A stretch of DNA of 36,773 bases from an uncultured Candidatus Saccharibacteria bacterium. Lineage in GTDB: Bacteria > Patescibacteriota > Minisyncoccia > Phycocordibacterales > UBA12445. The number at the start of each line of letters is the position of its first letter. The stretch's first letter is position 1. This document shows, piece by piece, positions 6,970 through 31,281 of the stretch. A model generated the notes under the pieces. The model worked only from the letters and a program-made list of their open reading frames with translations. It was not told the DNA's origin and did no database searches. The DNA is taken from contig CAYUNB010000001.1 in assembly GCA_964446095.1 (NCBI GenBank), positions 1 through 36,773 on the forward strand. Direction: 5' to 3'. Position numbers and translations under genes: made by a program.

Positions 6970-7030
6970 GCAGCGAAAGACTGACAAAAAAATATTCTGA
7001 GGTGGCTCAATCGCGCTGCGACAAAATAAA

Positions 7031-7060
7031 AAATCTCCGGAAAATTTCCGGAGATTTTTT
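7031..7060. terminator. Terminator-like hairpin with T/A runs on both sides
   Basis: AAATCTCCGG (7031-7040) pairs with CCGGAGATTT (7048-7057). It has TTTTTT downstream on the plus strand and TTTTATTTT downstream on the minus strand. Confidence 0.55.
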
Positions 7061-7068
7061 ATTTCATT

Positions 7069-7139
7069 CTGGAGTAGGATCAGCAGACGCTTACTCCAAA
7101 ACAAATATCATTTTGAGTGCTCTGCTGACCTTACTCAAG
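7069..7139. other. Long imperfect hairpin (about 19 stacked positions plus a 6-bp apical extension)
   Basis: CTGGAGTAGGATCAGCAGA (7069-7087) pairs with TCTGCTGACCTTACTCAAG (7121-7139), giving 16 pairs. The inner helix is GC..ACTC (7089-7096) with GAGTGC (7115-7120). Confidence 0.4.
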
Positions 7140-7203
7140 AACGAATCAGGTCAACCAGAACATTTATATTCTAAGTTAGGACAAAGAAAAATGCAACTCG
7201 CTC

Positions 7204-7324
7204 GGGACTCTAGATTTAGATGCAGAACGAGGAGAAGATGAGTATTGCGAGGAAGATGTACTTGGCAGTACATTGACGAACAAGTGGAATCTTCGACAAA
7301 GTTATGCGCTAAATCTAGAGTCCT
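7204..7324. ncRNA. Unclassified structured element, copy 1 (homolog at 30749..30868)
   Basis: The outer helix is 7205-7218 with 7310-7323 (14 bp). The inner helix is 7234-7239 with 7289-7294. The terminal hairpin is 7256-7262 with 7267-7273. Junction sequences are conserved and the helices covary relative to copy 2. The strand is undetermined. Confidence 0.55.
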
Positions 7325-7335
7325 AAAACATAAAA

Positions 7336-7365
7336 CCCGGCCGAAGCCGGGCTTTATGCGATATT
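7336..7365. terminator. GC tetraloop hairpin, terminator-like on either strand
   Basis: CCCGGC (7336-7341) pairs with GCCGGG (7346-7351) around loop CGAA. On the minus strand it is followed by TTTTATGTTTT, and on the plus strand by CTTTATGCGATATTTGTTTT. Confidence 0.5.
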
Positions 7366-7420
7366 TGTTTTGGAAAGCTCTTCAAAATAATGATTTATAA
7401 TGAAGATGCACTCGAATAGT

Positions 7421-29950: not shown

Positions 29951-30676
29951 TTATTTCTTAATTCCCAGGAAGTGCTTGAGGGTGTAGATCCAGTCCTCTT
30001 CGTCCTTGTCTGACTCCAGCTTCGTCTTCAAGAGCCACTCGAGATAGCCGCGGTCCTCCTTCAACACATCGACGACGAGCTTGTCCTTGTGCTTGCCGAA
30101 GGTGATCTTCTTGATGATCGAGGGTCTATTGGAGATCTCAATCATCTCTTCAATAGCCTTGTCCCTGTCCGGAATCGTCTCCATCATCTTAGCCAAGAGC
30201 CGCTCGAAGAGGGCATGGAGCACTGCTACATCACCCTTGGCGTCATGCGCCTCGGCCTCGACTTCGAGCCCGAGATAGTAGCGCAAGAACTGCAGACGAT
30301 GGTTCGGCAGAGAGTTGTTGCTATCCAGGTGCCTAGCTACCTTCAGGGTGCAGATCTTCCTCGGGACCACGACGCCTTCATTGTTCAAAATGGCGCAATC
30401 GAAGGGAGCGTTATGAGCCACAAGTACATGATCCTGCAGAATCGTATCAAGCTCCTTGTGCATCGAACTGCCCCGGAAGGCGGGCTTGTCGGCCACCGTC
30501 TTGTCAGTGATGTGCGTGATCTCCGAGGCCTCCGGCGGGATCGGGATCGGCGGCTTGAAATACTCCGACCTCACCTTATCACCGACTCTGTAGCAGAGCT
30601 GGCAAAGGCGATCCTTCTTCGGTTCATTGCCCGTCGTCTCGGTGTCTAGAAATACAAGCTTCATGGATTTCTTCAA
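29951..30676 (-). CDS. DEDDh 3'-5' exonuclease (DnaQ/epsilon-like) with a C-terminal DUF3820-like extension
   Basis: The Exo motifs are LVFLDTETTG (Exo I), LVAHNAPFDCAIL (Exo II) and HDAKGDVAVL (Exo III). The C-terminal part reads ITFGKHKDKLVVDVLKEDRGYLEWLL. The TTG start has GGGAGG 5 nt upstream. Confidence 0.85.
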   Translation of the reverse strand: MKKSMKLVFLDTETTGNEPKKDRLCQLCYRVGDKVRSEYFKPPIPIPPEASEITHITDKTVADKPAFRGSSMHKELDTILQDHVLVAHNAPFDCAILNNEGVVVPRKICTLKVARHLDSNNSLPNHRLQFLRYYLGLEVEAEAHDAKGDVAVLHALFERLLAKMMETIPDRDKAIEEMIEISNRPSIIKKITFGKHKDKLVVDVLKEDRGYLEWLLKTKLESDKDEEDWIYTLKHFLGIKK

Positions 30677-30748
30677 ATATACCTCCCTATCCGGGATTAA
30701 AATAATATATAAAGTCTAGATAGTCAAGTTAAAATTAATGTTAAATTA

Positions 30749-30868
30749 GAACTTTCAAACTTGGATGCAGAACGCGGAAGAAACGAGGCTTACGAGGAAG
30801 ATGTACTAACAGTACATTGAGGAGTAACCGGAGTTTCTGACAATGTTATGCGCCAAGCTTGAGAGTTC
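30749..30868. ncRNA. Unclassified structured element, copy 2 (homolog of 7204..7324)
   Basis: The outer helix is 30749-30764 with 30853-30868 (16 positions, one G-U and one A-C). The inner helix is 30779-30784 with 30833-30838. The hairpin is 30801-30807 with 30811-30817. It abuts the stop codon of the DUF1761 gene. Confidence 0.55.
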
Positions 30869-31281
30869 TAACGCCAGACTCCGAGCACAAGACCAAATAC
30901 AACGAATAGAGTAAGCTGGTAGCCTGTCTGAATCAGAAAGCGCGACCAGGCCAGATGTTTCTTTTCGTTATTCCACATCGAGGCACCGGCAGTCGTCGGC
31001 AGTACGAAGCCGGCCCAGAGCCAGAGCGCGTGGCCCATAGCGCTGCCGACATTCAAAATTGATAAGTAGTACGCCAGCACCCACGCCTGGAAGAGCGTCA
31101 GTAGGAACTGAACCAAATAGAGCGGGCCAGCGGCCTTCCGCATCTCCTCCCGAGCCTTAGCATCATGCATGTCTGCGCCGATAATCTCCGCCCACTTCTT
31201 ACCAAAAAGGGTCCCGTACCAGACCATGCCGAGAATCATCGACAATACTCCGCAAGCTAAGACTGCCCAATAGTTGATCAT
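30868..31281 (-). CDS. DUF1761-family membrane protein
   Basis: MINYWAVLACGVLSMILGMVWYGTLFGKKWAEIIG and four TM segments are typical of DUF1761. Confidence 0.7.
   Translation of the reverse strand: MINYWAVLACGVLSMILGMVWYGTLFGKKWAEIIGADMHDAKAREEMRKAAGPLYLVQFLLTLFQAWVLAYYLSILNVGSAMGHALWLWAGFVLPTTAGASMWNNEKKHLAWSRFLIQTGYQLTLFVVFGLVLGVWR

Follow-up and report, generated by a model that had tools for sequence, protein, structure and literature searches.

A stop-codon-abutting inverted repeat in an uncultured Saccharibacteria bacterium: probable member of a dispersed, MITE-like family

What is a strongly folding element of about 120 bp doing with one end inside a stop codon and the other end just short of the next promoter? 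This arrangement is found in a 36,773-nt stretch of DNA from an uncultured Candidatus Saccharibacteria bacterium (contig CAYUNB010000001.1 of assembly GCA_964446095.1; the whole stretch is called the window here), at the junction between a gene for a DUF1761 protein and a gene for a DEDDh-type exonuclease. The window holds two copies of the element, and it is copy 2 that occupies this junction. An earlier note, made from the DNA letters, favored a stand-alone RNA, an RNA derived from a 3' untranslated region (3'-UTR), or a protein-binding or insulator element. What it missed is that the two copies are not a two-copy RNA gene; they belong to a dispersed, TA-flanked, inverted-repeat family that is like the so-called MITEs, or miniature inverted-repeat transposable elements. 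The reading preferred here, to which we give a probability of roughly 0.68 from the sequences at hand, is that copy 2 is a member of a dispersed, non-coding inverted-repeat family of ~120 bp, and that this family is a MITE-like mobile repeat.

A covariance model built from the two window copies was used to search the 0.81-Mb assembly that contains the window (the home genome), 61 genomes of the order and 301 genomes of the class. The home genome has 14 copies. The element occurs in 22 of the 61 order genomes, with 1-21 copies in each, and in 32 of the 301 class genomes; the range over all genomes sampled is 0-21. Copy number is patchy inside a single genus, where 14, 2, 17, 2 and 1 copies were counted, and one pair of congeners has 21 versus 11. 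Mean identity among the copies is 92% in the relative labeled G037 and 68% in the home genome; comparison of the G037 sequences indicates a recent burst there. A total of 112 copies, 118-123 bp in length, were fetched and aligned, and TA flanks were counted on 111. Standard pairs fill 91.9% of the pair cells, with changes on both sides at 40 of the 41 pairs. None of 500 shuffles matched the observed values, and in a control where partners were slid by 1-3 columns pairing fell to 34-39%. Between copy 1 and copy 2 alone, 15 of the 41 predicted pairs have changed in a compensatory manner. This is a genuine fold, and it has been retained. The features of copy 2 that carry the argument, together with copy 1, are as follows.

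30749..30868, plus strand: copy 2, the ~120-bp element (covariance-model score 136.6 bits); the strand given is that of the more stable fold.
30749..30764, plus strand: left terminal inverted repeat (GAACTTTCAAACTTGG), forming the outer helix as its 5' arm; pairs with 30853-30868.
30853..30868, plus strand: right terminal inverted repeat (CCAAGCTTGAGAGTTC), forming the outer helix as its 3' arm; it closes with C30868, the third base of the DUF1761 stop.
30761..30774, plus strand: conserved subterminal block TTGGATGCAGAACG, holding the U of a U.G pair retained in 92 of the 112 copies (112-copy alignment).
30800..30818, plus strand: apical hairpin GATGTAC-loop-GTACATT, the best-conserved helix of the family (112-copy alignment).
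30839..30856, plus strand: conserved subterminal block GACAATGTTATGCGCCAA, partner of the TTGGATGCAGAACG block (112-copy alignment).
30747..30748, no strand: TA flank on the 5' side of copy 2, read from the family flank statistics as half of a TA target-site duplication.
30869..30870, no strand: TA flank on the 3' side of copy 2, equal to the first two bases of the DUF1761 TAG on the minus strand (open reading frame (ORF) call and family flank statistics).
7204..7324, plus strand: copy 1, same family; 3' end toward the terminator of a minus-strand unit, 5' end toward a minus-strand promoter.

On the plus strand copy 2 takes the shape of a rod, with five helices and internal loops rich in purines (-48.1 kcal/mol, z = -7.7; the minus strand gives -37 kcal/mol, z = -5.7). 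The 16-position outer helix described earlier was reproduced, as 14 Watson-Crick pairs, one U.G and one A.C; the flanking TA at 30747-48 and TA at 30869-70 could lengthen it to 18. No coding content is apparent, with reading frames of only 18 codons in copy 1 and 14 in copy 2. A conserved small ORF (ATG CAG AAC ...) was considered and rejected, since the ATG is missing from several copies and the substitutions compensate one another within pairs. An outward promoter inside the element was also set aside: of a -35-like TCGACA only GACA is conserved, with no conserved -10. Viral contigs searched for a phage origin gave no match to the element. A literature search returned no paper on such repeats in these bacteria, and a 2024 MITE review contains neither 'stop codon' nor 'Patescibacteria'. 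One copy in the home genome (C67:1423-1543) carries a 32-nt G+C-rich palindrome (CCCGCCCGTACCAAATGGTACGTTCGGGCGGG) nested in its 3' arm.

The edges of the element resemble those of a mobile repeat. TA brackets 62 of 111 copies on both sides and another 17 on one side, against a background TA frequency of 6.3% in the flanks. Over the copies the flank profile is T-A-[TA], element, [TA]-W, and the termini follow a loose consensus G/A-R-A-M-T-T. The 16-bp outer helix, with 92% of its cells paired over the family, corresponds to terminal inverted repeats, and TA on both sides is most simply a TA target-site duplication. The termini also occur on other cargos. In G037 the terminus GGACTTACGCAGT (13 bases, up to 2 mismatches) was found 92 times versus 6 for a reversed control, and about a dozen elements of 50-185 bp there have the same termini and TA flanks around unrelated interiors, which are G+C-rich palindromes. 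A 95-bp TA-flanked element of the home genome (C10:747-841) has a perfect 14-bp terminal repeat and again a different interior. Bacterial MITEs have been described as shorter than 200 bp, with terminal inverted repeats that end in 5'-TA-3' and with duplicated target sites (PMC2229807). The present family is likewise short and non-coding, with terminal inverted repeats, TA ends and many dispersed copies in varying number; a full-length insertion sequence with the same termini was not found.

Other small repeats accompany these elements. Second and third kinds of mini-element were seen in G037 (loci L108-L127), with termini TA/GGACTTACGC...GCGTAAGTCC/TA and palindromes of the ATTCCCGC-N4-GCGGGAAT type, sometimes doubled; one 51-bp version is inserted directly beside another element. 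The home genome has a 79-bp TA-flanked palindromic repeat in two copies of 87% identity (C60:3242-3320 and C2:15382-15460).

Junctions with and without the element can be compared between relatives. The rpsJ/rplC junction is occupied in the home genome and one congener (G000 and G002) and empty in congener G001, where the spacer is 25 nt, as well as in every one of 20 further relatives for which rpsJ and rplC were both located. The tuf/rpsJ junction is occupied in G037 and empty in its congener G359 (tuf identity between them 76%). At rpsG/fusA the element has opposite orientations in different lineages. The spacer between rpsJ and rplC (L229/L230) also holds, after the element, a segment of ~65 nt with a conserved promoter-like TTTACT-17-TAGATT; it is common to the two element-bearing species and absent from the congener that lacks the element, which suggests that rplC may have gained its own promoter there. 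For copy 2 the expected element-free join is AATGTTAAAT-TA-ACGCCAGACTCC. The only other contig with the same DUF1761 protein is identical in sequence, scans of metagenomes and species genomes for the empty site yielded distant homologues only, and exact-protein look-ups for the exonuclease and a NUDIX gene returned no match.

Why a stop codon? The genes and promoter-like sites on which the answer depends are given below.

30868..31281, minus strand: DUF1761 gene (Pfam PF08570; ORF call and Pfam match); its stop overlaps the element by one base.
30699..30727, minus strand: promoter-like TTGACT-17-TATTTT of the DEDDh exonuclease gene, 21 nt past the element (consensus scan); not part of the repeat.
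29951..30676, minus strand: DEDDh-type exonuclease gene, downstream of copy 2 on the gene strand (ORF call).
7196 to 7168, minus strand: promoter-like TTGCAT-17-TAGAAT at copy 1 (scan).
Between rpsJ and rplC: promoter-like TTTACT-17-TAGATT, conserved between two species (the site mentioned above).

The outer helix does end at 30868, as the earlier note had it, but that position is the third base of the TAG as read, not the first: the DUF1761 stop consists of T30870, A30869 and the complement of C30868, with one base common to gene and element. This is the commonest geometry in the family. Neighboring ORFs were called for all 112 copies, with the element in the orientation of the covariance model. 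The 3' end points toward the stop of an opposite-strand gene in 85 copies, and in 58 of the 112 (52%) the stop lies within 9 nt; at the 5' end a stop is as near as this in just 6 copies. Frequently the stop codon is made of TA plus the terminal base of the element. This triplet reads TAG or TAA because the family termini begin with a purine, and insertion into the TA of a stop would therefore rebuild a stop. Homologues of the DUF1761 protein end in WR or WK and then a stop in 8 of 12 cases, and the neighbor of copy 2 ends at the same usual C-terminus. Because the protein ends where its family usually ends, the stop must on this sequence comparison have pre-existed the element and been kept, with the protein intact.

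Under the mobile-repeat reading the sequence of events at copy 2 would be simple. The element would have landed, by TA-targeted insertion, on the TA of the pre-existing DUF1761 stop, and TA plus the purine at the terminus would have rebuilt TAG (TAA elsewhere) with the protein unchanged. Copy 2, and over half of all copies, would abut stops because insertion into the TA of a stop rebuilds it. The promoter of the exonuclease gene would be the next unit's own, and the slot between stop and promoter would be one that tolerates insertion in a densely packed genome. The DUF1761 transcript would then contain the reverse complement, which folds into a weaker hairpin (-37 kcal/mol) that has the stop codon at its base. 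By analogy with ERIC and Correia repeats, this hairpin could be a 3' stem that is melted by translating and terminating ribosomes and possibly used by RNases.

The DUF1761 gene itself may have come from elsewhere. The closest homologues of its protein, at 54-62% identity, are in metagenome-assembled genomes labeled Gammaproteobacteria, Rikenellaceae and Bacteroidales. In two congeners the gene upstream of the exonuclease orthologue is a different one, and the element is absent. Together these comparisons suggest that the DUF1761 gene came by horizontal transfer.

Beyond the other (5') end of the element there is usually the start of the next gene, a median of 97 nt away. The TTGACT-17-TATTTT site that had been proposed for the exonuclease gene, running from 30727 to 30699, was recovered by the consensus scan. 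The flanks are unlike between copies, so this site is outside the repeat. The layout seen at copy 2, gene end, element and then next promoter, recurs at copy 1 and at rpsJ/rplC, where promoter-like sites, unlike in sequence and outside the repeat, also lie 8-23 nt past the 5' end. Of 64 copies scanned, 16 have a promoter-like site in the relevant flank that points away from the element, and 7 have one in the upstream 90 nt that points into it. Two candidate small RNAs flank copy 1 in the window. One, of ~85 nt (7328-7414, minus strand; promoter-like TTGACT-17-TAATAT at 7449-7421), is nearly identical in a congener and ends in a hairpin (7356-7334) followed by UUUUAUGUUUU, which is therefore the terminator of that unit and not of copy 1. 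The second, of ~140 nt (7020-7162, minus strand), is structured (-62.5 kcal/mol, z = -10), has the promoter-like TTGCAT-17-TAGAAT at 7196-7168 and ends in a terminator at 7064-7024. It is ~97% conserved with a congener, the adjacent spacer is not, and it has no Rfam match.

The neighbors of the element are very diverse. Over the 112 copies they include rpsG/fusA, rpsJ/rplC, rny (RNase Y), HU, smpB and the transfer-messenger RNA (tmRNA), pilC, a LysM-M23 peptidase, DUF1761 and small-RNA genes. The comparison of neighborhoods that had been proposed was carried out over these 112 copies: no single gene family follows the element, and most copies stand after genes, not before them. With such neighbors, and with no Rfam 15 model reaching its gathering score in the window or matching either copy at E ≤ 10, the earlier argument against a classical cis-regulatory riboswitch or leader holds, and this candidate was dropped. 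A canonical intrinsic terminator was rejected too. No T-tract follows the helix on either strand (the mean T count in the next 12 nt is 4.2 on the plus strand and 4.5 on the minus strand), the terminator scan reports none at copy 2, and some copies lie inside ribosomal-protein clusters.

Could the element serve the DUF1761 mRNA, as a 3'-UTR element read on the minus strand that replaces a missing terminator or stabilizes the message? The gene indeed lacks a canonical terminator, since the scan found no hairpin-plus-T-tract between its stop and the exonuclease gene, in agreement with the earlier note; its remark that such terminators follow most genes of the window was too strong (the scan places one at 18 of the window's 50 gene ends and at 27% of those in the whole genome). 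The hairpin begins in the stop codon, most copies are so oriented directly after a stop, and ERIC and Correia repeats act on upstream mRNA in a comparable way (PMC2229807). The strand of the fold speaks against it. The plus strand is the more stable in 108 of 112 copies (means -48.1 vs -37.5 kcal/mol), G.U pairs outnumber A.C 278 to 73 on that strand, and the mRNA strand has a C.A mismatch where 92 of the 112 copies keep U.G on the other. Internal loops that are purine-rich on both sides (CGAGGAA/GACGAA, GAG/GGA, GAGGA/GACAAAG) exist on the plus strand only. About 78% of copies are antisense to their neighbors, and the counts of G.U versus A.C per copy (2.2-2.9 vs 0.4-0.7) are alike in sense and antisense copies. 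The ratio should flip between the two if selection acted on the neighbor's mRNA; it does not, and the strand preference therefore belongs to the element itself, whether by way of a single-stranded form, through a protein that binds it, or as a trait inherited from source copies. We infer that the preference has to do with the biology of the element, for instance a single strand of RNA or DNA or a bound protein, and not with the DUF1761 mRNA. Canonical terminators past the abutted copies are not clearly depleted (10 of 58 vs the 27% baseline), a figure from which neither substitution nor independence follows. The lack of a T-tract and the copies within the rpsJ-rplC and rpsG-fusA junctions also disagree with a terminator substitute, and a 3'-UTR role as the explanation of copy 2 is very unlikely. 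Within the window, 40 of 50 called genes are on the minus strand and GC skew of the plus strand is negative across most of the length; both copies, being on the plus strand, are antisense to the dominant gene direction.

The plus-strand preference would suit a set of stand-alone small RNA genes, antisense to the neighbor's 3' end and acting, for example, as protein-binding or regulatory RNAs. Covariation and G.U pairs favor that strand, as do the internal loops just described, and the copy between smpB and tmRNA runs in the tmRNA direction, 4 nt upstream of it, with 95% conservation. Against this, no plus-strand promoter-like site occurs within 350 nt upstream of copy 2, and only the 7 of 64 copies counted above have one in their upstream 90 nt. 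The plus-strand hairpin is as a rule not followed by a terminator, and upstream flanks are unrelated between copies. TA flanks, termini on other cargos and bursts in copy number would be unexpected for an RNA gene. A small RNA gene at copy 2 is accordingly rated as quite unlikely.

If copy 2 is instead a MITE-like repeat, an enzyme acting on its termini might be sought in the same or related genomes. One model, a MITE of the RUP type derived from an IS630/Tc1-mariner element, would agree with the TA flanks; no resident IS630 element was found in the 89% complete home genome. Model NF033545 stayed below cut-off in 14 element-rich genomes. Of 61 relatives, just G044 and G024 gave a match to PF13358 (DDE_3); the one such locus that was read, in G044, has ends unlike the element termini. 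The solo termini in G037 run into no transposase gene. A single rve-type transposase was seen in G127.

A different enzyme is assumed if the element is REPIN-like, that is, a hairpin moved as single-stranded DNA by a Y1 (RAYT or IS200-like) transposase. REPINs are reportedly long hairpins with compensated arms and a strand-specific fold, all of which copy 2 and its relatives show. Partial Y1_Tnp (IS200-like) proteins of ~215-260 aa are present in 40 of the 61 order genomes, with up to 13 per genome. Their genes do not track the element, however, being found in 15 of 22 element-bearing genomes and in 25 of 39 element-free ones, and no Y1_Tnp gene was found in the home genome, G031 (17 copies), G038 (9 copies) or G053 (8 copies). 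TA on both sides and true terminal inverted repeats fit poorly, and the termini have no GTAG or CGTC head. Movement of this kind is extremely improbable.

Two copies whose flanks are clearly orthologous are conserved between a congener and the home genome. One stands between smpB and tmRNA (locus L005, 1081-1621, contig C24 of the home genome; locus L040 of the congener) and points the same way as both genes. Its distance from the smpB stop is 11 nt, or 3 nt in the congener, and only 4 nt separate it from the 5' end of tmRNA; it may be part of the tmRNA precursor. Copy 1 is the second. Other copies at a shared junction are of different subfamilies in the two species, which fits turnover or re-insertion.

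Several of these observations weigh against a MITE-like mobile repeat. No transposase partner was found: IS630-type models are absent or below cut-off in the element-rich genomes, that with the burst included, and a transposase could be missing from the home assembly because that genome is only 89% complete. A DDE transposase requires termini only, and such an enzyme explains neither the class-wide covariation of the interior nor the 10:1 stop-codon polarity. The TA...TA flanks are self-complementary, with CA...TG in five copies, and could partly be an extension of the helix, not a duplication. The relatives that define filled and empty junctions are too diverged for their spacers to align, and no precise empty site was obtained. 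The smpB-tmRNA copy is identical at 115 of 121 positions between two species in which SmpB is only ~77% identical, and copy 1 retains its pairing with respect to the congener: 5 changes are compensatory, another 5 are of the wobble kind, and a single pair is broken. Such conservation in place is far above neutral and points to a host-level function at some sites at least. As the alignment partly shows, the interior is not free-drifting filler, for the rod fold of one strand has been retained by compensatory change across the class.

These points leave room for a more tentative, less probable idea in which the covarying core, with its purine-rich loops and fixed U.G pair, is a functional recognition structure and no transposon remnant. 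The element would be either a strand-specific mobile module set directionally at gene boundaries by an as yet undescribed mechanism, the folded single strand (RNA or DNA) being joined to a stop codon's TA by some enzyme unlike both the IS630 and the Y1 types, or an asymmetric hairpin adopted by the host that passes sense expression and blocks antisense transcription.

Taken alone, the second of these, a directional gene-boundary device of the host, is unlikely. In such a device, G.U and G.A pairs would give one strand a strong hairpin and leave the opposite strand with a weak one. Transcription and translation in the sense direction would pass, and antisense or divergent transcripts coming back from the downstream promoter toward the upstream gene would be stopped or destabilized. 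Stops do face one end about ten times more often than the other, the promoter-like sites past the 5' end at copy 1, copy 2 and rpsJ/rplC are suitably placed, and the plus strand is more stable by ~10.6 kcal/mol in the 108 copies mentioned above. The two orthologous copies conserved in place would fit as well. Ribosomal-protein clusters of the sort that hold some copies are single operons in other bacteria, and sense transcription would probably have to pass the element there. What tells against a device is the shortage of T after the helix on either strand, the small share of copies with an outward promoter-like site (16 of 64, with 7 of 64 inward), and the large majority of relatives that have no element, for which it is dispensable. 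The MITE-like repeat is preferred here as the account of copy 2.

Streamlined, ultra-small genomes are usually held to carry little repeat or mobile DNA. A 0.8-Mb genome with 14 structured repeats, some in ribosomal-protein clusters and one directly before tmRNA, is a departure from that picture. Beyond the MITE hallmarks, three traits are poorly explained by known MITEs: covariation across a class, a strand-asymmetric fold that is mostly opposite the mRNA, and the 10:1 rule for the stop-proximal end. If the insertion mechanism sets the stop rule, there would be an unknown way to recognize gene ends; if selection sets it, the family would be a natural, portable, orientation-dependent gene-boundary element. 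For annotation, the family explains why some stop codons in these genomes are composite and why some genes look 'terminator-less'.

Several families of small bacterial repeats resemble this one in part, the closest being ERIC (IRU), Correia (NEMIS) and RUP. REPINs mobilized by RAYT share the long hairpins, the compensation from arm to arm and the organization into within-genome families; the present elements differ in having TA flanks on both sides, true terminal inverted repeats and no co-occurrence with Y1. RUP of Streptococcus pneumoniae, mobilized by IS630-Spn1, is similar in size (~107-120 bp), in its terminal inverted repeats and in its insertion at TA (PMC2229807). RUP termini match a resident IS630 element, whereas no IS630-type transposase was found in the 14 element-rich genomes here. 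Correia repeats (NEMIS) of Neisseria have terminal inverted repeats, TA at both ends, a length of 100-155 bp and many copies beside genes, and their hairpin RNA is processed together with the neighboring mRNA by RNase III (PMC2229807). Copies of the Correia repeat are close in sequence and have no reported covarying interior, in contrast to a family that covaries across a class, and neither an integration host factor (IHF) site nor an outward promoter is evident in the latter. ERIC (IRU) elements of Enterobacteria and Vibrio are, like the present ones, dispersed imperfect palindromes of ~120-130 bp, outside genes and often near gene ends. They are co-transcribed as long hairpins, and it is their orientation that decides how ERIC copies affect the upstream mRNA (PMC2229807); according to De Gregorio 2005, as cited there, ERIC near stop codons alters the stability of the upstream mRNA by orientation. 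The family described here has no visible sequence relation to ERIC and resides in bacteria with ultra-small genomes. Its fold, unlike that of ERIC, lies opposite the neighbor's mRNA in ~78% of copies, and in 52% the 3' end is no more than 9 nt from a stop codon.

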